DNA of 35,321 bases from a virus (IMGVR_UViG_648276647_000008), one strand, 5' to 3'. Positions 10,524-28,327 are shown, counted from the stretch's first letter. Notes: generated by a model not told the origin, from the sequence alone. A program made the numbers and translations.

Positions 10524-10636
10524 TTGTCATTTGTTACCGGTCAGTCTACACATTTCAGATACTATGTTAAAACAACTCAAGTGCTTCAAGTAGCACATCG
10601 TCATCAACACCCAGCCCCAAGATACGGTGATAAAAT

Positions 10637-11671
10637 TCAAGCCTTAAGAGGCTTTGTGTATGTTCGTGTAATCCATCCAGTAATAAACTCGTCCCCTGAT
10701 TTAACCTGCACGAAAAGCCATTGGCGATCTTTTTTATCTAAAACAGCCACTATAGTATTTTTGCCAATGCATTCAATCACCTCACTATTTATAGAAGGAC
10801 TGACGTGTAATCTTACGTTCTCACCAGTTATAAAACGAAAACCATTGAGATCTTCCCAACTAATTTCTTTGTTTTCTTTAATTAATTGTTGTTTTGATAT
10901 TGGTTTATCCTCAAACAGAGATATAAAATATGATTCTGCCTTGTGTATTCCCAGCAAGGTTTTCTCTTTTCCGTAATCAATAAAAGCACCAAACACAACT
11001 TGAGAAAATATAACCATTAGTAACCATTGCAGTGGATAAGGAAGCTCTTTAAATGAATCAACAAACTTTGAGCTAGGTTTATTTAATCCTTTATTTTGAA
11101 CATTACTTTTGGTGTGTGATGTTTCAGTAGCACCTTCAGCATAAGCCTGCGCAATAGATGAAATCCCCTGCTCTATTATTTGATGTAATGAAGCATTTCT
11201 TGTTCTAGCATAGTGATCTAGTACTTTCTTTATGTCTTGGCTTACATCTATTTTATAACTTGCACTTTGTTGTAATTCTTTAAGTATCGCTTGCATGTTA
11301 TTTAAACCAGCTTGCTTATTAAGCACCTCAAGCTGTTTTCGTAATGGCATAGCTATTTCGGCCTGTTTCCTTAGAATTTGAATATATCTATTTGCGTCAT
11401 GAGGGAAAAGAGCCTGAGTCTGTTTCTGTAAAATCGCGATATGTTCACGATACTTGCTGCCTATTCCAGCCAAGTTCGGTATACTAGCCAATTGTTTTCG
11501 AAGAGAGTTACTAATTACAGCTTGTCTATTCAATCTTGTCATATTTTGAAAAGAATGTTTTTCTATTCCTAATTGTTTTTGCAAGATCGCTACGTGATCT
11601 TTGTATGATGGAATGAGCACTGACTGTTTATACAGTAACTTCAACTCATTAGAATTAGTAATTTTTGTCAT
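10637..11671 (-). CDS. Membrane-anchored protein with N-terminal ~45-aa repeats and C-terminal SH3b-like domain
   Basis: ORF track gives 355 aa from a TTG; the first ATG (MTKIT...) is at 11671. Repeats (HVAILQKQ... / HIAILQKQ... / YIQILRKQ...), one hydrophobic helix (LQWLLMVIFSQVVFGAFIDY), C-terminal segment resembling bacterial SH3. Markedly AT-rich relative to flanking phage genes. Confidence 0.5.
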   Translation of the reverse strand: MTKITNSNELKLLYKQSVLIPSYKDHVAILQKQLGIEKHSFQNMTRLNRQAVISNSLRKQLASIPNLAGIGSKYREHIAILQKQTQALFPHDANRYIQILRKQAEIAMPLRKQLEVLNKQAGLNNMQAILKELQQSASYKIDVSQDIKKVLDHYARTRNASLHQIIEQGISSIAQAYAEGATETSHTKSNVQNKGLNKPSSKFVDSFKELPYPLQWLLMVIFSQVVFGAFIDYGKEKTLLGIHKAESYFISLFEDKPISKQQLIKENKEISWEDLNGFRFITGENVRLHVSPSINSEVIECIGKNTIVAVLDKKDRQWLFVQVKSGDEFITGWITRTYTKPLKA

Positions 11672-11745
11672 ATTATTCCATTTATATAATAGAATATTAC
11701 GCAACCAATGTTTTATTGATTGCGTTAATCTTTAACACAGAAAGA

Positions 11746-12222
11746 TCATTTGCCTCGTTTAATACATCCATCCATTTTGGCTTGTTGATACAACTTACTT
11801 AGCCCAGAAAGAGGGAATGTAGCAATTTTTTCATTATCAACATAAGCATCAATCATATTAGCATTTGAATCTGCTGCATCTTGCCAAAAGGCATACCACC
11901 AAGAATCTCCAACCATTGATCCAAGATTGCTAAAAGGATATTGCTCACCATCTATAGTTAATACTATTTTATTCTTGTCAGCATTATACTCTTTTTTATT
12001 ATTCGACGAACTTAGCAACAAGCCTAAACTACCTGCACTATCTGGTGAACCATACATGAATCCCATATCACATAAAAAACTTATCTTATCACCATTATGA
12101 TTATGGATTGTATATTCTCTCCCCCCTCTCTCTTCAATTACATTCCATTGTAGAGGATCAATTTTTGCAAATGTTCCTGCTGAAACTAACGATACAAATA
12201 ATAAAAACCATCTCATATTCAT
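11746..12222 (-). CDS. Secreted/periplasmic protein with N-terminal signal peptide
   Basis: 158-aa ORF; N-terminus MNMRWFLLFVSLVSAGTFA is a typical Sec signal peptide; AT-rich; no recognisable catalytic motif. Confidence 0.5.
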   Translation of the reverse strand: MNMRWFLLFVSLVSAGTFAKIDPLQWNVIEERGGREYTIHNHNGDKISFLCDMGFMYGSPDSAGSLGLLLSSSNNKKEYNADKNKIVLTIDGEQYPFSNLGSMVGDSWWYAFWQDAADSNANMIDAYVDNEKIATFPLSGLSKLYQQAKMDGCIKRGK

Positions 12223-12244
12223 TCTTTTCGCTTCTTATCTGTAA

Positions 12245-12595
12245 TTATTCTGCAATATCATTTGCCCATTGCACGGCAGCAAAATGAGTACCCAAACCAC
12301 TCAGGAAAGCAATTACCCCCAAAACAATACTTGCTGCTGTTGATTCAAACAAAGTACCAATACTATAGCCAATAGCTCCCCATACTAAGCTAAATACAAT
12401 CATCAATGGTATTGCCAGAAATTTTATTCTTAAACTAAAAATCAGTCCAAGAAAAGAACCGCCAAAGGCCCACCATGATTTAGACATTAAACCTATCAGT
12501 ATTGACAGAATTCCTATTTCAATAAAGAGAATATTAGATTGCTCTTCATTGAATTTCGCATTTGTTACACCTTTACGAACATGTTCAGATGACAT
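12245..12595 (-). CDS. Small polytopic inner-membrane protein
   Basis: 116-aa ORF with 3-4 predicted TM helices; ATG at 12595 preceded by AGGAGA RBS. A TTGACC-17-TATGCT promoter-like element lies upstream on the minus strand at ~12640-12670. Confidence 0.5.
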   Translation of the reverse strand: MSSEHVRKGVTNAKFNEEQSNILFIEIGILSILIGLMSKSWWAFGGSFLGLIFSLRIKFLAIPLMIVFSLVWGAIGYSIGTLFESTAASIVLGVIAFLSGLGTHFAAVQWANDIAE

Positions 12596-12678
12596 GATTA
12601 ACTATCTCCTGCCACAGATAAAACGTCTTAAAATAACATTTTGTAGCATAAAGTTTCACCATGCAATGGTCAAAATCT

Positions 12679-12707
12679 TTGACCCATATCAATTAAACTC
12701 ATACATT
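12679..12707 (+). promoter_or_regulatory. Sigma70-like promoter (TTGACC-17 nt-TACATT) directed towards the immI operon
   Basis: Hexamers and 17-nt spacer read from the sequence; positioned like the P1 c4/icd/ant promoter upstream of the operator motif and candidate c4 RNA. Confidence 0.45.
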
Positions 12708-12741
12708 TTAGTTACCAGAGAAATAATTTACATGGTTGCAA

Positions 12742-12758
12742 ATTGCTCTAATTATTTT
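12742..12758 (+). promoter_or_regulatory. C1-repressor-operator-like 17-mer (ATTGCTCTAATTATTTT)
   Basis: 15/17 match to the asymmetric P1 C1 operator consensus ATTGCTCTAATAAATTT as recalled; three more copies occur in the window. Confidence 0.5.
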
Positions 12759-12831
12759 ATTTTTTTAGCTTCATATGCTACATTAACTTGCTTGCGTGCT
12801 AATGCATTTTCGGTTTATCCTAAACAGGCAT

Positions 12832-12908
12832 CTTAGTAAAACGGATGCCGGGATTGGAACCCCGGATAATGCAAAAGGCGACATAGACGCCAAAAGCGTC
12901 TTTTTTTT
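12832..12908 (+). ncRNA. c4: Candidate c4-like antisense RNA (immI repressor RNA)
   Basis: Non-coding segment between promoter/operator and icd. Hairpin GCCGGG-ATTGGAA-CCCGG presents ATTGGAACC in its loop; a second hairpin GACGC-CAAAA-GCGTC is followed by T8 (intrinsic terminator). Complement GGTTCCAAC occurs ~13010 and a second ATTGGAACC copy at ~13045. Boundaries approximate. Confidence 0.4.
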
Positions 12909-13093
12909 GTGTCATGCCATCGCACAACCATACGTAGCACATAGCTCCGAGATCAATGGTAGTGCTGGCTGGGCTGCCGAAAGGCAGGCCGGTTCCCTTT
13001 TGCGCCGGTAGTTCCAACCCAGTCAGTGCTACCGCCATTGAGATTGGAACCTCACGCGGTAGCTCCTTAAATTAGCAAAAGGAGGCTGCCATT

Positions 13094-13315
13094 GTGGCTA
13101 CTATCCCTACCCCTACTCATCCTGAATTTATCTGGCGCTTTTACTCCTGCCAAAAACACCACTATCACTTCGTTATCGCAGCAACAGAAGACGAAGCACG
13201 CTCTCAATTGCCTGATGGCCCCTGCATTTTTACAGCCCGTTTTTCAACTAACTCGCGCAATTCACTTAGTTACTGGAGCCTCCCCTTCTCTGCCGACGTT
13301 CAGGGGGGTTTATGA
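13094..13315 (+). CDS. icd: Small protein overlapping the ant start (Icd-like cell-division inhibitor)
   Basis: 73-aa ORF with GTG start at 13094 and AAGGAGG RBS ~10 nt upstream; its stop overlaps the ant ATG. Size and position match P1 icd as recalled. Confidence 0.55.
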   Translation: MATIPTPTHPEFIWRFYSCQKHHYHFVIAATEDEARSQLPDGPCIFTARFSTNSRNSLSYWSLPFSADVQGGL

Positions 13316-14715
13316 AAACACCTCTCGTCACCCGTAATGAAATAGCCGAAGCGATCGCCCTGCATACTGCCTGTATGCCGACACGGGAGATCCCCGGCGC
13401 AATTGCCAACTATTTCATGATAACCAGACGTTTTTATACCCGAACAGATAAGGCTGTGATCAACAGGCTACTGATAGCCGAGATCAGGGATTATTTGATT
13501 GAACAAGGACGTCTACGTTACGCAACAGTGGCAGCAGAAATGAGAAAGGAGGCACACAGAGTGACCGGTAATAATTTGAATGTTGAAAAAACAGCACCTG
13601 TTACGTCAGCTACGCCAGCACCAGCCGTGAATATCATCCCCAACACCGGAGACACAATCGACAGCCTGACACTGTTAAAGATGGTCAATGAAGCGCGTAA
13701 GTTATGTGGGGAACCAGAGGTTCGGAACAACAAATTCATCGAAAAAATACTCGATGAGCTTGATGGTGAGCACTACACAAAAAGTGTAGTGGAAAAAATG
13801 AACAAAACATCAATGCTTGTCATAACCATGACATACAAACAAGCCCTGCGCGTTGCTGCTCGCGAATCGAAAGCGGTCCGCCGTTCGCTACATACCATGA
13901 TTCAGGCATTGGAACCTATAAATGTTGAAAATCATCCTGATGAAATTCCCGTTCTGGAATGGCAGGGAGTACGCGTCGTGACAACCGAGACTCTTGCTAG
14001 AGGGTATGGCACTACACCTATTCGTATTCAGCAGAACTACAATCGCAATGAAGAACGATTTGTAGAGGGTAAACACTTCTTTAAAATCAAAGGAGATGAG
14101 ATAAAAAGTTTGCGACTATCTTTTAGCGAGTTGCAAATTTCCCCCAAGACCAGATCCTTAATACTCTGGACCGAACGCGGAGCGGCACGCATGTCTAAGA
14201 TCGTAGACACAGAGCAAGCGTGGGCATTCTTTGAAAAACTGGAAGACAGCTACTTCCGGCAAAAAGAACAGCAACCGGTCGCAATCCCCCAGACGCTTCC
14301 CGAAGCTCTGCGCCTGGCTGCCGAGCTGGCTGAACAAAAGCAGCTACTGGAACAGAAAACCCACCAGCTAAATCAGCAGCTGGTGGCCGCAGCCCCTAAA
14401 GTCGATTTTGCCGACCGGGTATCAGTGGCTAATGGAATCCTGATCGGGAACTTTGCAAAGGTCGTTGGACTTAAGCAAAACGCCCTTTTCTCATGGTTGC
14501 GCCAGAACGGCATTCTCATGGCTTTTGGTGCGCGCAAAAACGTACCGCGCCAACAGTACATCAACGCCGGGTATTTCACGGTGAAAGAAGTGGTGCTGGA
14601 TGATGAAAATGGCTACCAGATACGGCTGACGCCCCAATTAACGGGTAAAGGCCAGCAGTGGTTAACTCGCAAGCTACTTGATGCTGGTTTGTTAAAACCA
14701 GTAGCAATAGGTTAA
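13312..14715 (+). CDS. ant: Antirepressor (Ant; AntA-like N-terminal region plus KilAC/ANT C-terminal domain)
   Basis: 467-aa ORF; C-terminal ~140 aa are ~65% identical to the C-terminus of the downstream KilA-like protein (read from the translations). Internal in-frame Met residues could give a shorter Ant2-type product. Confidence 0.75.
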   Translation: MKTPLVTRNEIAEAIALHTACMPTREIPGAIANYFMITRRFYTRTDKAVINRLLIAEIRDYLIEQGRLRYATVAAEMRKEAHRVTGNNLNVEKTAPVTSATPAPAVNIIPNTGDTIDSLTLLKMVNEARKLCGEPEVRNNKFIEKILDELDGEHYTKSVVEKMNKTSMLVITMTYKQALRVAARESKAVRRSLHTMIQALEPINVENHPDEIPVLEWQGVRVVTTETLARGYGTTPIRIQQNYNRNEERFVEGKHFFKIKGDEIKSLRLSFSELQISPKTRSLILWTERGAARMSKIVDTEQAWAFFEKLEDSYFRQKEQQPVAIPQTLPEALRLAAELAEQKQLLEQKTHQLNQQLVAAAPKVDFADRVSVANGILIGNFAKVVGLKQNALFSWLRQNGILMAFGARKNVPRQQYINAGYFTVKEVVLDDENGYQIRLTPQLTGKGQQWLTRKLLDAGLLKPVAIG

Positions 14716-15709: not shown

Positions 15710-16554
15710 ATGCTGGCTAAAGTCACTTTCCTGAGCTGTATAACGATGAGCGATTTTACTTTTTCTGGCTATGAATTGGCCTGCTTTGTAACACACTCCG
15801 GTCTATCCCGTAGCGCCGGGCATATCCTGTCGCAATGTGCAAATCTCGCGGCAACAACCAGTGAATACTTCATTCACAAGCCTCACCGCCTGATCGCGGC
15901 AGAAACCGGTTATAGCCAATCAACCGTCGTTCGTGCATTCCGTGAAGCTGTAAACAAAGGAATCCTGTCTGTAGAGATTGTTATCGGCGATCACCGTGAA
16001 CGTCGCGCTAACCTGTACCGGTTTACACCATCCTTTTTGGCCTTCGCACAACAAGCCAAAAATGCGCTGATTGAAAGCAAATTAAAGATCTCTTCAGCGG
16101 CAACCAAGGTTAAAGCTGTTCTCGCTAAGACATTGGCTTTATTTAATTTTTTATCCACACCCCCATGTCAAAATGATGCCCCCTCCCCCTGTCAGGATGA
16201 CGTGGCAATAAAGAATAAGAAGTCACAAATAAAAAAACAAAAAGATCAGTTTCCGGCGGTGCCGAAACGACCAGCCTCAAAAAACTGACTTCATGGATCG
16301 CCGAGGCAAAAGCAAAGGCTGACAATCTGCGGTTATCCAAAAAACGCGCTCAAAAACATGAGTTCAAGCAGAAAGTAGAGGCGGCAGCGCGGAAATATGC
16401 TTACCTGAAGAACAAGCGTTCTCCTGATATTGGCGGGATATCAAACTTCGATAATCTGCCGCATTGCATGACGGTAAACGAAGCTCTTAATGCGGTTTTA
16501 GCCAAAAATAAAGATAACGAACAATGGGGTATACCGGCAGGATTCAGAGGGTGA
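15710..16554 (+). pseudogene. repL: Lytic-replicon initiator RepL-like gene interrupted by an apparent -1 frameshift in an A-rich tract
   Basis: Frame 1 (15710-16288, 192 aa) has an HTH-like segment GYSQSTVVRAFREAVNKGIL. The overlapping frame is open from 16219 to the stop at 16552-16554 with no ATG until late. Joining them through AAATAAAAAAACAAAAAG (16228-16245) gives ~281 codons, the length recalled for P1 RepL. Confidence 0.45.
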
Positions 16555-16601
16555 TAGATTGCTCTAATCTGGAGTCACCTGGCATTTTCAGTTTGAGGTC
16601 G

Positions 16602-25560: not shown

Positions 25561-25833
25561 CGAAAGTCATCCTTTATGCTGTATTTTTGAATTTAATTAA
25601 AAATGCTGCATAAAATAATAATGTATGCGTAGATGCTTGTACATAGCATTCCCTGCATGTTTACTCCTTTGCCAAGTGTGTCACAACATGCTTTGGCATC
25701 CTCCACGCATAAAGGACGCGGATTTCTTTTATGTTCAGGTTGTAGCCTGAATCATTTTGGTGATTTCCTGCTTCAACGGGCAGCCCGGCTTCACTCTCTA
25801 TCAACTGGTGAGAACGGCTTGCCCGGCAGCTTC

Positions 25834-26120
25834 GATGTGTGCTGGAGGGAGAATAAAAGTCTAAGATGTGCGATAGAGGGAAGTCGCATTGAATTATGTG
25901 CTGTGGAGGGATCGCTGGTATCAAATATGTGTGCTGGAGGGAAAGACAGAGAATTACATGTGCACTGGAGGGAAAAACGGATGGACAGATGTGTGCTGGA
26001 GGGAAAGTCTGAGCAAGCTGCGGGGCGTCCCCCTCCAGCGCACATCAAAAACGGGAAATTGGACAAGCCTTCCCGGCAGCACACATTTTTTGAATGCAGC
26101 AGCCCTCCAGCACACACTTA
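25834..26120. repeat. incA iteron array: nine ~19-bp RepA-binding iterons, six direct and three inverted
   Basis: Copies of GATGTGTGCTGGAGGGAAA-like sequence at ~25834, 25865, 25906, 25925, 25956, 25988 and inverted at ~26031, 26072, 26103, abutting the repA 3' end. Confidence 0.85.
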
Positions 26121-26978
26121 TTCGGGGAGTTTCAGCTTTGGATTGCGAGAATGGACGATTACAAAACTTTCCCGGCCTTTCTTCTCAATTGAACAGTCGA
26201 GATAGCCGATTGTTTTAAGCTGTTCTATCGCTTTCTTAATGATACGGTTTTGCTCGCCAACAGCTGACTGCAAAGCCAGGCGCTCACGGATTCGCGCGAA
26301 CGATAGCGGCAACGGGTTCTGCGGAAGGCTTTCGATGAAAGTGTAAATGGCTTGTGCAGCTTCTTTCTTCGGAAGGGCACGCAAGGCGTGGTGTTGCAAC
26401 AGAACGCGATAATCAAGCTGGAACAGCTCCCACAGCTTCGAATCAGCCTCCAGCTCTATCAGATCAAGGTCAGCATCAAAACGCCCGACCTTCAGCAGAC
26501 CAGTCTGATAGCCGCCTTTAGCATCTTTTCCGCGCTTAAAAGCGATACCCTTGTTACGCAAGCGTCCAAGTGATTCATGAATGGTTAAACGCAGTTTCGC
26601 ATCCAGACGTTTTGAGGGGAAACCACAGGCTTTAGCGAATTCCTGAAACGATAACTGGATGGTGTTTGAGGACAAGCCGTATTTGCTGAACGCGTAGATG
26701 ACACCGATCCACGTTTTGAAATCAGTATCCATATCGAGTCGAGGACCGGTGATTTTAATATCATCGTAACCCTCGGCTTTAGCTATCTCCAGCTGGGAAA
26801 ACGCTTTGGTGGCATCAATCTCTTTACTTTCTCCTTTGCTCTTTGATGGCTTCGGCACGAATACCCCCAAGCGCATCAACGCTACAGGCTGCACAGTGTT
26901 GTTTGAATTAACTGTTAGTTCTTTTGCCTTACTTTCAATGTCTGCGTAAAGAATATCGGAGATAAAAGATTGATTCAT
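26118..26978 (-). CDS. repA: Plasmid replication initiator RepA
   Basis: 286-aa ORF flanked by iteron arrays on both sides (incC upstream, incA downstream), the P1 R-replicon architecture. Confidence 0.85.
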   Translation of the reverse strand: MNQSFISDILYADIESKAKELTVNSNNTVQPVALMRLGVFVPKPSKSKGESKEIDATKAFSQLEIAKAEGYDDIKITGPRLDMDTDFKTWIGVIYAFSKYGLSSNTIQLSFQEFAKACGFPSKRLDAKLRLTIHESLGRLRNKGIAFKRGKDAKGGYQTGLLKVGRFDADLDLIELEADSKLWELFQLDYRVLLQHHALRALPKKEAAQAIYTFIESLPQNPLPLSFARIRERLALQSAVGEQNRIIKKAIEQLKTIGYLDCSIEKKGRESFVIVHSRNPKLKLPE

Positions 26979-27037
26979 ATTACTTTTTCCGAATTATGTG
27001 GATAGTTTTTATAAGCGGTGATAACTACCCGGGCTTT

Positions 27038-27138
27038 CCCGTCAGCACACATCCTATATCCCGCCAGCACACATTAGCAACCCGTCAGCACACATTTTTA
27101 TCCCGTCAGCACACATCGTTTTCCCTCCAGCACACATC
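27038..27138. repeat. incC iteron array: five direct iterons (CCCGTCAGCACACAT) at ~21-22 bp spacing in the repA promoter region
   Basis: Five copies at ~27038, 27060, 27081, 27102, 27123. Confidence 0.85.
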
Positions 27139-27174
27139 GCGATACACTTCTAAGCCAGACGTGGCGCGGCCTGC

Positions 27175-27260
27175 AACGATCAGGGATCTATATGGATCTA
27201 ATTGGGATCTGTATGGACCTAATTATTGGATCTACCCAGTGGATAATGTGGATAAGTGAA
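27175..27260. promoter_or_regulatory. oriR core: five clustered GATC sites in heptamer repeats plus DnaA box
   Basis: GATC at ~27178, 27185, 27195, 27206, 27230; DnaA box TGTGGATAA at 27247-27255 (another TGTGGATA at ~26997 near the repA start). Confidence 0.7.
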
Positions 27261-27295
27261 AAACCGGCCAACATAGCCGGTTGGAAGGAAGGGTA

Positions 27296-27688
27296 TTATT
27301 CTACGCTTTCGATAAGAAGACCATGTTCATAACATTTAAGCTCATCGCCTTCGTACAGGAATTGGTATCCAATACCACCATTTTCATGGACATTAGGGAA
27401 TAACTCATAACTCACTGAAGAGCAAATCACACCAATGCAACGATCAACGCCTTCTCGTTCTTCAGTGCTGAAAAAATCCTCTTCGGTAAGAACATGAGTA
27501 CATTGCTCATCAGCATAGGTCGGAAATACATGCTCGATGCAATCCGGGTGTTTTAAACCAAGCTGATCGGCAAGCTCGAAAGCATGACGGTATTGTTCAG
27601 ATCCTGGCTTGCCAACAGTGATGTGCTCAATTTTGTAGATTGAAGTCGCTTTGTTGATAGTTTGCTTTACTGTTACTTTATCAGACAT
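27296..27688 (-). CDS. Hypothetical Cys-containing protein (P1 upfA position)
   Basis: 130-aa ORF with ATG start, adjacent to the replicon; no motif recognised. Confidence 0.45.
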   Translation of the reverse strand: MSDKVTVKQTINKATSIYKIEHITVGKPGSEQYRHAFELADQLGLKHPDCIEHVFPTYADEQCTHVLTEEDFFSTEEREGVDRCIGVICSSVSYELFPNVHENGGIGYQFLYEGDELKCYEHGLLIESVE

Positions 27689-27699
27689 AAAAATCCCTT

Positions 27700-28032
27700 T
27701 TAGTTACCGCTGATAGCGCGGTTGTAATCATTAACGTTGCGATTCTTCCTGTTAATCCCCATCAGCATCGTTTCTGTATCGAGGATATACGCTGGCAGAT
27801 CATCAAAATATTCACTGCTAAACTCTGGCATCCTGCACATAAATGCACTTTTTGGGGCAGGGTGGTTAACCTTTGTCGGCGTCGGCGTTAAATTCGCTGA
27901 TCGACTCCCGGAGCAACCGCTGAGTGTCAGCAGGAATACGCTGGCGAACATTACCCGCCGCAACAAGTTGTTTCTGAACTTCAGCTTTTCGTTCCATTTG
28001 CCTGTCAGCATACTTGGCTTGTTCTGATTCAT
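27700..28032 (-). CDS. Lipoprotein precursor; candidate outer-membrane spanin subunit (P1 mlp position)
   Basis: 110-aa ORF with AGGAAG RBS; hydrophobic stretch ending in lipobox LSGC, then a Pro/Thr-rich mature part (TPTPTKVNHPAPK). Its start lies inside the 3' end of the upstream gene in another frame. Confidence 0.5.
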   Translation of the reverse strand: MNQNKPSMLTGKWNEKLKFRNNLLRRVMFASVFLLTLSGCSGSRSANLTPTPTKVNHPAPKSAFMCRMPEFSSEYFDDLPAYILDTETMLMGINRKNRNVNDYNRAISGN

Positions 28033-28288
28033 TTTTCACTTCCTGGCTGTGAAAATGTTGCTCTGCTTTGTTCATCGTCTCAATGGTCTGGTTAAGATCC
28101 ATTATTGACTTATCACGTTCCTTAACAGCCTGATCAAGACTGCCAATTTTCTCCATGGCTTGCTTTAGCTGATGACGTTCCCACGCAAACCCAGCACCAA
28201 CAAGTGCGCAAATCAGAACAAGAACACCAGTAGCAGCAAGTTTCTCCTTCAAAGACAAAGCTGTTTTTAATGTAGAAAAGAATGACAT
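27866..28288 (-). CDS. Type-II membrane protein with coiled-coil periplasmic domain; candidate inner-membrane spanin subunit (P1 ppfA position)
   Basis: ATG at 28288 (MSFF...) with GGAGG RBS at 6 nt; the track's upstream start is a TTG. N-terminal TM helix (ATGVLVLICALVGAGFAW) then a charged helical region; the 3' end overlaps the lipoprotein gene by ~165 nt. Confidence 0.5.
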   Translation of the reverse strand: MSFFSTLKTALSLKEKLAATGVLVLICALVGAGFAWERHQLKQAMEKIGSLDQAVKERDKSIMDLNQTIETMNKAEQHFHSQEVKNESEQAKYADRQMERKAEVQKQLVAAGNVRQRIPADTQRLLRESISEFNADADKG

Positions 28289-28327
28289 GTCTTCCTCCTG
28301 AAGAAAAATTATCAATGAAGTCCTTTG

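Follow-up and report, generated by a model that had tools for sequence, protein, structure and literature searches.

What does a pair of overlapping reading frames beside the replicon of a virus-derived sequence encode? The pair lies in a stretch of 35,321 nucleotides, all of which was analysed and which we call the window. An earlier note made from the sequence of this DNA had placed the two open reading frames at 27866-28288 and 27700-28032 and had proposed that they resemble a two-component spanin, with the inner-membrane partner (i-spanin) and the outer-membrane lipoprotein (o-spanin) encoded in overlapping frames. We recovered both open reading frames, which are on the minus strand, and asked which element they belong to, whether both frames are translated, and whether the spanin reading or some other function best accounts for them.

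Identity of the element and of the two genes

The 1.5 kb around the pair is 96-98% identical in nucleotide sequence to P1, P7, RCS47, SJ46, and other Punavirus records. The first 25 kb of the window matches the same phages, and the window as a whole is collinear with RCS47 except in known variable islands, which are the repA/incA island, the immunity/sim region, and the tail-fibre end. In the window, tail-fibre and baseplate genes are followed by sit, tub, c4-icd-ant, kilA, repL, genes 21-22-23, parB, parA, repA, and oriR, and beyond oriR by upfA, mlp, ppfA, upfB, upfC, and then the divergent uhr-hrdC-dmt genes. The order parB-parA-repA-oriR-upfA-mlp-ppfA-upfB-upfC is kept relative to P1, P7, and RCS47. 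By these matches the whole window is assigned to a P1-like Punavirus phage-plasmid of Enterobacteriaceae, and the two flagged reading frames are identified as the P1 genes ppfA (P1_gp064) and mlp (P1_gp063). The pair is present in 646 of 5,426 complete E. coli genomes, nearly always on P1-like plasmids of approximately 90-100 kb. A scan of species-representative genomes found only three near-identical loci and no extra diversity.

Predicted features of PpfA

The gene ppfA (27866-28288, minus strand) is predicted to encode a type II inner-membrane protein of 140 amino acids, the candidate i-spanin; this assignment draws on the reading frame and its start, a match to PHROG 89, identity with P1, and Table S1 of Kongari et al. 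2018. The start codon is ATG and is preceded, at a distance of 5 nt, by the Shine-Dalgarno sequence AGGAGG (28294-28299, minus strand), which is kept in 9 of 9 relatives. A longer reading frame with a TTG start at 28315 also exists and lacks a ribosome-binding site. PpfA differs from the P1 protein at one of its 140 residues (M45 versus I45; 99% amino acid identity).

PpfA has a single hydrophobic segment at amino acids 17-35 (mean Kyte-Doolittle value 2.35), and the 16 amino acids before it carry a net charge of +2. Taking together the Kyte-Doolittle profile, the AlphaFold2 helix, and the start of the periplasmic domain at E37 in Kongari et al. 2018, we place the predicted transmembrane segment at amino acids 17-36, LAATGVLVLICALVGAGFAW (28181-28240, minus strand). 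The hydrophobic character of this segment is kept in the 19 homologues with a preserved N-terminus; one other aligned homologue, P0012, has a different N-terminus. The periplasmic part comprises 104 amino acids, of which 36% are charged, with one Pro and no Cys, and the sole Cys of PpfA is in the transmembrane segment. AlphaFold2, given an alignment of 20 sequences, modelled a helix at 13-110, a break at 111-119 (AAGNVRQRIP), and a second helix at 120-139, with a mean pLDDT of 71. By a crude count, 75-88% of the heptad a and d positions over amino acids 37-78 are hydrophobic, and a similarly crude test over the whole of amino acids 37-110 gave a best-register fraction of 0.57 (P=0.035 versus shuffles). 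The model thus describes PpfA as a type II membrane protein with a periplasmic domain predicted to consist of two helices and a short linker. This is in keeping with the N-terminally anchored coiled-coil protein described in the earlier note, given its one hydrophobic segment, the AlphaFold2 helices, and the crude heptad count.

A sequence search of the PDB found no solved relative of PpfA, and Pfam returned only sub-threshold coiled-coil noise. When 1.84 billion representative proteins were searched with a PpfA profile, there were 37 matches at E<=1e-3, mostly fragments or generic coiled coils. Three of these (P0078, P0084, and P0093) are full-length remote relatives that also match spanin PHROGs. 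The PpfA family is narrow and small.

Predicted features of Mlp

The gene mlp (27700-28032, minus strand) is predicted to encode an o-spanin precursor, an outer-membrane lipoprotein of 110 amino acids with a mature form of 71 amino acids. Evidence for this comes from the reading frame, PHROG matches, an alignment with LysC of phage P2, and a coding signature past the ppfA stop. Translation is predicted to start at an ATG at 28032, which is 6 nt after the Shine-Dalgarno-like sequence AGGAAG (28039-28044, minus strand). This motif is located within the PpfA codons for Q-E-V-K, and the same motif is marked in Table S1 of Kongari et al. 2018. In relatives the site reads cAGGAGGtgaaag, and the ATG comes after it, shifted downstream by one codon; the Shine-Dalgarno sequence of the distant clade is conserved and stronger (AGGAGG).

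Several other Met codons were considered as starts and rejected. No Shine-Dalgarno sequence precedes Met8, which is not conserved. Relatives have Leu in place of Met28, and a start at this codon would leave a signal of 12 amino acids with no basic residue. Met65 and Met68 are downstream of the lipobox, and Met65 is conserved in relatives. The earlier note had allowed for a true lipoprotein start outside the overlap that would lack a processed Cys; we found instead that the ATG and Shine-Dalgarno sequence inside the overlap are kept and that Met28 is not.

The n-region of Mlp is basic, with seven K or R residues in amino acids 1-27, and is followed by a hydrophobic core (VMFASVFLLTL) and the lipobox TLSG-C40. 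A signal peptidase II site is predicted before Cys40 in the motif L37-S38-G39-C40 (27913-27924, minus strand) from a PROSITE-type pattern, from conservation, and from the LipoP result in Kongari et al. 2018. The form L-[SN]-[GA]-C is kept in 9 of 9 sequences, and the residue at +2 is Ser in all nine, so the lipobox reported in the earlier note is both present and conserved. The signal, at 39 amino acids, is unusually long. It matches the PROSITE-type pattern and fails the PROSITE rule only because the Cys is beyond position 35. Kongari et al. 2018 (PMC6139136) likewise recorded a "Too long signal sequence" for Mlp, with LipoP cleavage at the 39th position and no Prosite hit. Because the residue at +2 is Ser and not Asp, Mlp is predicted to be sent to the outer membrane by the Lol system.

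Mature Mlp contains six Pro (8%), five of which are in its first 30 residues. The description of Mlp as proline-rich in the earlier note therefore suits the N-terminal half of the mature protein and not the remainder. Apart from the lipobox Cys, mature Mlp has one further Cys, C65 (FMCRMPE), which is conserved; with no periplasmic Cys in PpfA, this would fit covalent homodimers of the o-spanin only. Pfam gave no match at all for Mlp. The protein differs from P1 Mlp at one of 110 residues (L23 versus W23).

Both frames of the overlap are under selection

The overlap is 167 nt long (27866-28032, minus strand), in good agreement with the approximately 165 nt in different frames given in the earlier note, and places PpfA amino acids 86-140 over Mlp amino acids 1-56. 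Read in the +1 frame, mlp begins 256 nt after the start of ppfA and continues for 166 nt beyond the stop of that gene. We analysed the overlap in nine sequences with amino acid identities down to 59%. The distant relatives in this set (59-64% amino acid identity in PpfA) are contigs from Cronobacter sakazakii, Salmonella enterica, and Klebsiella aerogenes, together with metagenome and run-assembly contigs. The contigs of the relatives span 2-95 kb, and the complete ones are approximately 90-95 kb long.

In each of the nine sequences, the block from ppfA to the mlp stop aligned without gaps across 586-589 nt, and the +1 frame is open from the conserved ATG. The distant clade has this ATG at a site one codon downstream. 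There are no stops in this frame in the 56 codons of the overlap versus 4-8 in the 85 codons that belong to ppfA only. Third positions of ppfA are variable at 74 of 85 codons in the ppfA-only part and at 25 of 27 codons over the n-region of Mlp. Over Mlp amino acids 28-56, which contain the hydrophobic core, the lipobox, and the mature N-terminus, the wobble positions of ppfA are frozen, with only 10 of 29 variable (Fisher p=1.6e-7 compared with 74 of 85). Past the ppfA stop, variation was seen at 43 of 55 third positions of mlp versus 35 of 108 first and second positions (p=2.7e-8). Both the ppfA and the mlp frames are under purifying selection, and the overlap is a case of true dual coding. 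The mlp frame has a conserved ribosome-binding site of its own within ppfA, from which its translation is predicted to begin. The layout is economical in that the conserved C-terminal helix of PpfA overlies the signal-peptide n-region, which is the most change-tolerant part of Mlp.

These results bear on a different annotation of the locus, according to which only ppfA and a reading frame of 43-46 amino acids starting at Met65 or Met68 are real and the overlap is an accident of an open alternative frame. The phage records MH422554 and RCS47 contain mlp in this short form, and one RefSeq (PGAP) plasmid record cuts mlp to a frame of 46 amino acids with no lipobox and calls ppfA a "hypothetical protein". 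Gene callers applied to metagenome contigs likewise give the short mlp frame or no call. However, the short frame has neither a signal peptide nor a lipobox. It also leaves without explanation an upstream frame that stays open in nine divergent sequences, the frozen synonymous sites of ppfA over Mlp amino acids 28-56, the conservation of the upstream ATG and Shine-Dalgarno sequence and not of Met28, and a homology with P2 LysC that begins at the signal peptide. Upstream of Met65, the wobble sites of ppfA are under additional constraint, which shows that translation of Mlp begins before this codon. The dual-coding statistics refute an annotation with the short frame only, and we consider it extremely improbable that the overlap is accidental.

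Approximately eight public protein clusters are PpfA::Mlp fusions of 193-195 amino acids that arise via 1-nt indels in the overlap. These fusions show that the pair gets inactivated in nature or in assemblies. In the window itself, repL, the lytic replication gene, has a 1-nt deletion that truncates RepL to 192 of 281 amino acids; a sequencing error is possible at this site. The fusions and the truncated RepL would fit a reading in which the plasmid is a defective P1-like prophage with disused lysis accessory genes and the pair a decaying relic. Against this, both reading frames are intact in the window and their products are 98-100% identical to those of P1, many plasmids of approximately 90-100 kb carry identical copies of the pair, there is purifying selection across the family, and the indel in repL may not be real. 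We therefore regard decay of the pair as very unlikely.

Homology with phage lysis proteins and prior annotation

PpfA matched PHROG 89 ("Rz-like spanin") over nearly its whole length (1.2e-25). Mlp matched PHROG 30284 (2.6e-77) and, weakly, PHROG 456 (2.8e-5), both of which are also annotated as "Rz-like spanin". LysB of phage P2 is in PHROG 89 (5.8e-61), and P2 LysC is in PHROG 456 (1.7e-31) and cross-matches PHROG 30284. By pairwise BLASTP, Mlp and P2 LysC are 37% identical over 68 amino acids that include the signal peptide, the lipobox, a P-T-P stretch, and the Cys of a C-x-M-P motif. Alignment of PpfA with the single P2 LysB sequence by hhalign was not significant (probability 1%), so the link between PpfA and LysB rests on PHROG 89. 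The LysB and LysC models were the sole NCBIfam matches and scored well below their cut-offs, at 19 versus 92.75 bits for PpfA (TIGR03495) and 14.7 versus 27 bits for Mlp (NF038368). Pfam at E<=0.1 gave no match to a lysis family (Rz, Rz1) for either protein. By these matches, the P1 genes are distantly homologous to P2 LysB/LysC and are not equivalogs.

As far as sequence can tell, the pair has every feature of an overlapped two-component spanin as laid out by Summer 2007 and Kongari 2018. PpfA has a predicted type II topology and a helical periplasmic domain, Mlp has a lipobox Cys and a residue other than Asp at +2, the start of mlp is in the +1 frame, and the host is Gram-negative. Several results were counted on the other side, namely the weak NCBIfam scores, the null hhalign result, the long signal, and, as described below, the CRISPRi result and the lack of an Lpa promoter and of significant induction at 10 and 20 min. 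On balance, ppfA and mlp very probably encode the i-spanin and the o-spanin, respectively, of a two-component spanin of a P1-like phage-plasmid, with a predicted function in lysis.

Comparison with curated spanin sets, which the earlier note had suggested, leads to the same answer. Kongari et al. 2018 (PMC6139136, Table S1) list P1 (NC_005856) as "ovl", with gp064 as the OIS i-spanin and gp063 as the OOS o-spanin of a family called "P1". The table marks the same Shine-Dalgarno motifs, begins the periplasmic domain of the i-spanin at E37, and gives no periplasmic Cys for the i-spanin and one for the o-spanin. Bednarek et al. 2022 (PMC9025707) refer to the P1 pair as a predicted spanin and credit this to Summer et al. 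2007. The overlapped i-spanin/o-spanin architecture proposed in the earlier note thus agrees with the sequence features, the PHROG matches, and both of these papers. The pair is already published, and the finding is a correct rediscovery of a catalogued spanin.

Annotation of the pair is uneven. In the RefSeq records of P1 and P7, mlp is named "Rz-like spanin", and some GenBank records of P1-like phages use "Rz/Rz1". Among the RefSeq matches listed, "hypothetical protein" was the only label under the match. The labels "i-spanin" and "o-spanin" of the P1 pair are swapped in two recent papers. The practical value of the analysis is therefore annotation repair, covering the truncated mlp, the "hypothetical" ppfA, and the swapped labels.

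Genomic context and expression

The earlier note had remarked that the pair is next to the replicon rather than next to a lysis gene. This holds, as oriR and repA adjoin the pair and no holin or endolysin genes were found in the window. The sit gene encodes a virion transglycosylase and is not the endolysin gene. The informative neighbours of the pair are not the replicon genes and are instead upfC and upfB, which are directly upstream on the same strand. The upfC gene (29125-29409, minus strand) encodes a PAAR-like spike tip, and upfB (28328-29173, minus strand) encodes the tail-tip "tripod" and ends 39 nt before ppfA. Both proteins have been placed in the P1 baseplate by cryo-EM (PMC12810830; also PMC9024508). 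The block PAAR-upfB-ppfA-mlp-(upfA or a gp49-like gene)-repA-parA is kept in all distant relatives. After upfA and just before oriR, a consensus scan found a terminator-like hairpin (27262-27282, minus strand) with a 9-bp stem that contains five GC pairs, followed by a T-run. This hairpin, a pattern match only, is the probable end of an upfC-upfB-ppfA-mlp-upfA transcription unit. The gene arrangement suggests that ppfA and mlp are probably co-transcribed with upfC and upfB, so that their products would be made late.

We searched for Lpa late promoters with a box derived from the annotated LP23, AAGTGACTT, 4 nt, and TAAAAT (AAGTnACTT plus TAnnnT). The sites that precede genes 23 and R were recovered with this box. 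With up to two mismatches, there was nothing upstream of upfC and nothing convincing upstream of upfB or ppfA. With the spacer relaxed to 3-6 nt, only two boxes with two mismatches appeared, one at 29135 and one at 28326, within upfB or at its end, and the one at 28326 precedes the ppfA ATG by approximately 20 nt. Upstream of upfC, this wider search gave two candidates with three mismatches, at 29460 and 29467. We found none of these four convincing. The only promoters that the P1 record gives upstream of ppfA are predicted sigma-70 promoters (P1ppfA and P2ppfA), which are inside upfB. According to the supplementary table of a P1vir RNA-seq preprint, ppfA and mlp were not significantly induced at the sampled times of 10 and 20 min. 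In a genome-wide CRISPRi screen (PMC10695390), the EOP was 0.19-0.24 on knock-down of mlp and 1.2-1.3 on knock-down of ppfA; neither was taken as a reduction in plating, and both genes were scored as non-essential. Such a score is expected, because spanins are dispensable under standard laboratory plating (PMC9025707).

The location and expression data could also be read in another way, with the pair as an envelope module of the plasmid prophage that is expressed from sigma-70 promoters in the lysogen and acts in superinfection exclusion, serum or envelope resistance, or some other lysogenic conversion. Lambda Bor and TraT-type lipoproteins are models for a role in serum or envelope resistance. 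The position of the pair beside oriR/repA and far from lyz and lydA/B would fit such a module, as would the sigma-70-type promoters with no Lpa-type promoter found, the absence of a significant rise in expression 10 and 20 min into lytic growth, and the finding that neither gene is essential for plaques. Yet PpfA and Mlp have homologues in the LysB/LysC lysis pair of P2, with which they share lengths and the overlapped layout, and the genes immediately upstream on the same strand encode late virion tail-tip proteins. The lack of an effect on plaques carries little weight against a spanin, since it is known that phages can do without spanin genes when plated in the laboratory. We also know of no lysogen in which a functional spanin is expressed constitutively. 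We thus assign only a slight probability to an envelope module of this kind.

A broader form of this idea is that the P1-type pair is not a conventional late lysis set and is expressed in the lysogen or on an unusual schedule, with an envelope role beside or instead of lysis. Such a role could be envelope priming, exclusion, or vesicle formation. Expression of this kind is conceivable because no Lpa promoter was found, sigma-70 promoters are predicted, the pair abuts the origin, and no significant induction was seen at 10 and 20 min. Here too we judge the proposal very unlikely, and we favour a spanin that functions in lysis.

Proposed mechanism and comparison with known systems

The predicted topology of the two proteins and the division of labour between them are as in lambda Rz/Rz1, and this, together with the homology with P2 LysB/LysC, leads us to infer the same mechanism for the P1 pair. 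In the mechanism we propose, Cys40 of Mlp would receive the lipid, signal peptidase II would remove the signal, and the Lol system would place the lipoprotein in the outer membrane's inner leaflet. C65 probably forms a disulfide-linked Mlp dimer, PpfA having no periplasmic Cys. The periplasmic part of Mlp would bind the C-terminal part of PpfA, itself anchored in the inner membrane, and the resulting complexes would span the periplasm through the peptidoglycan mesh. The murein would hold them until it is degraded by the SAR endolysin Lyz, which the P1 holins (LydA, LydC, and LydD) release when they trigger. No longer confined, the PpfA-Mlp complexes may then change conformation or collapse and fuse the inner and outer membranes, which would remove the last barrier to virion release.

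The pair in the window and the P1 pair show only allelic differences (96-99% nucleotide identity). The catalogued P1 PpfA and Mlp have the same lengths, the same 167-nt overlap, the same Shine-Dalgarno motifs, and the same neighbours.

The P2 lysB/lysC pair is similar in construction. It encodes a type II protein of 141 amino acids and a lipoprotein of 96 amino acids in the +1 frame with an overlap of 146 nt, and LysC, like Mlp, has a lipobox, a Pro/Thr-rich stretch, and a single periplasmic Cys. The two systems differ in location. The P2 genes are in a lysis cassette after the holin gene Y, the endolysin gene K, and lysA, whereas in P1 the holin and endolysin genes are not linked to the pair, which comes after tail-tip genes beside the plasmid origin. 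P1 is a rare case in which holins, endolysin, and spanins are in separate operons. Mlp also differs from LysC in its signal peptide of 39 amino acids with a long basic n-region.

Lambda Rz/Rz1 resembles the P1 pair in its predicted topology, which combines a helical inner-membrane protein with an outer-membrane lipoprotein encoded in the +1 frame. However, no sequence homology with the lambda pair was detected, and Rz1 is wholly embedded in Rz, whereas mlp overlaps ppfA and extends 166 nt beyond it. Two Cys of lambda Rz are periplasmic, and 25% of the 40 amino acids of mature Rz1 are Pro. By contrast, the periplasmic part of PpfA lacks Cys, and mature Mlp is longer, at 71 amino acids, with 8% Pro.

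Annotation and naming of the spanin genes

The o-spanin was misannotated in all of the automatically annotated records that we checked. MH422554, RCS47, and the RefSeq/PGAP annotation of one plasmid record show only a short ORF of 43-46 aa that starts at Met65 or Met68 of Mlp, downstream of the lipobox. In the window, this short ORF region is at 27700-27840 on the minus strand. The corresponding region in other compared loci is at 1949-2089 (L019), 1957-2097 (L002), and 28492-28623 (L009). The short ORF is at times named "outer membrane lipoprotein Rz1" and the ppfA product is mostly labeled "hypothetical protein". On metagenome contigs, gene callers give the same short mlp ORF or none. Among 5,426 complete E. 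coli genomes, 646 carry ppfA/mlp.

The names given to the pair in the literature also vary. The introduction of PMC9025707 calls ppfA the o-spanin and mlp the i-spanin, as does the supplement of bioRxiv 10.64898/2025.12.28.696737. Judged by the sequence, the labels in both texts are reversed because the lipobox is in Mlp and the N-terminal membrane anchor is in PpfA. Table S1 of Kongari 2018 has the i-/o-spanin labels of the P1 pair the correct way round.

Fusions of PpfA and Mlp

Approximately eight protein clusters in public data (including P0003, P0010, P0039, P0041, P0046, and others) are PpfA::Mlp fusions of 193-195 aa with differing junctions. Every fusion is accounted for by a 1-nt indel within the overlap (window 27866-28037), such as a single missing A in the A5 run directly upstream of the mlp ATG, or a single missing G in the AAAGG ahead of the ppfA stop codon. 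These fusions may reflect real mutations that inactivate the pair in nature or artifacts of assembly; some of the clusters have 18-31 member sequences.

Comparison with RCS47 and the surrounding genes

We compared the window with RCS47 using blastn (E<=1e-20) and found matched blocks that were 89-99% identical. Five segments had no strong match to RCS47 at this threshold, and outside of these the window is collinear with RCS47. By position, they were assigned to the tail-fibre end (1-1058), the immunity/sim-region island (10535-13123), part of ant (13890-14373), the incA-repA replicon island, which is P1-type in the window (25663-27246), and part of dmt (31481-32229). The unmatched segments are probably mosaic islands of the kind usual in P1-like plasmids. 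The lytic replication initiator gene repL (15710-16555, plus strand) has a 1-nt deletion near 16230 relative to RCS47, resulting in a product of 192 aa instead of 281 aa. Lytic replication may be defective in this element; alternatively, the missing nucleotide may reflect an error in sequencing.

Relatives differ in gene content between mlp and the replicon. P1-type elements have upfA at this position (window 27296-27688, minus strand), a member of the unknown-function family PHROG 1453. In several distant relatives, a Pfam PF13876 (Phage_gp49_66) protein either replaces it or is added; the gene at this position is at 6600-6959 in L003, 6600-6953 in L004, and 3597-3962 in L015.

In the divergent upfC/uhr intergenic region (29410-29640), which lies ahead of upfC-upfB-ppfA-mlp-upfA, we found no good -35 or Lpa box on the upfC strand. 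The sole promoter-like element there is a TAAAAT -10-like hexamer on the upfC strand, approximately 35 nt upstream of the upfC GTG. In P1, the C1-controlled Pdmt is located within this intergenic region according to the P1 record.
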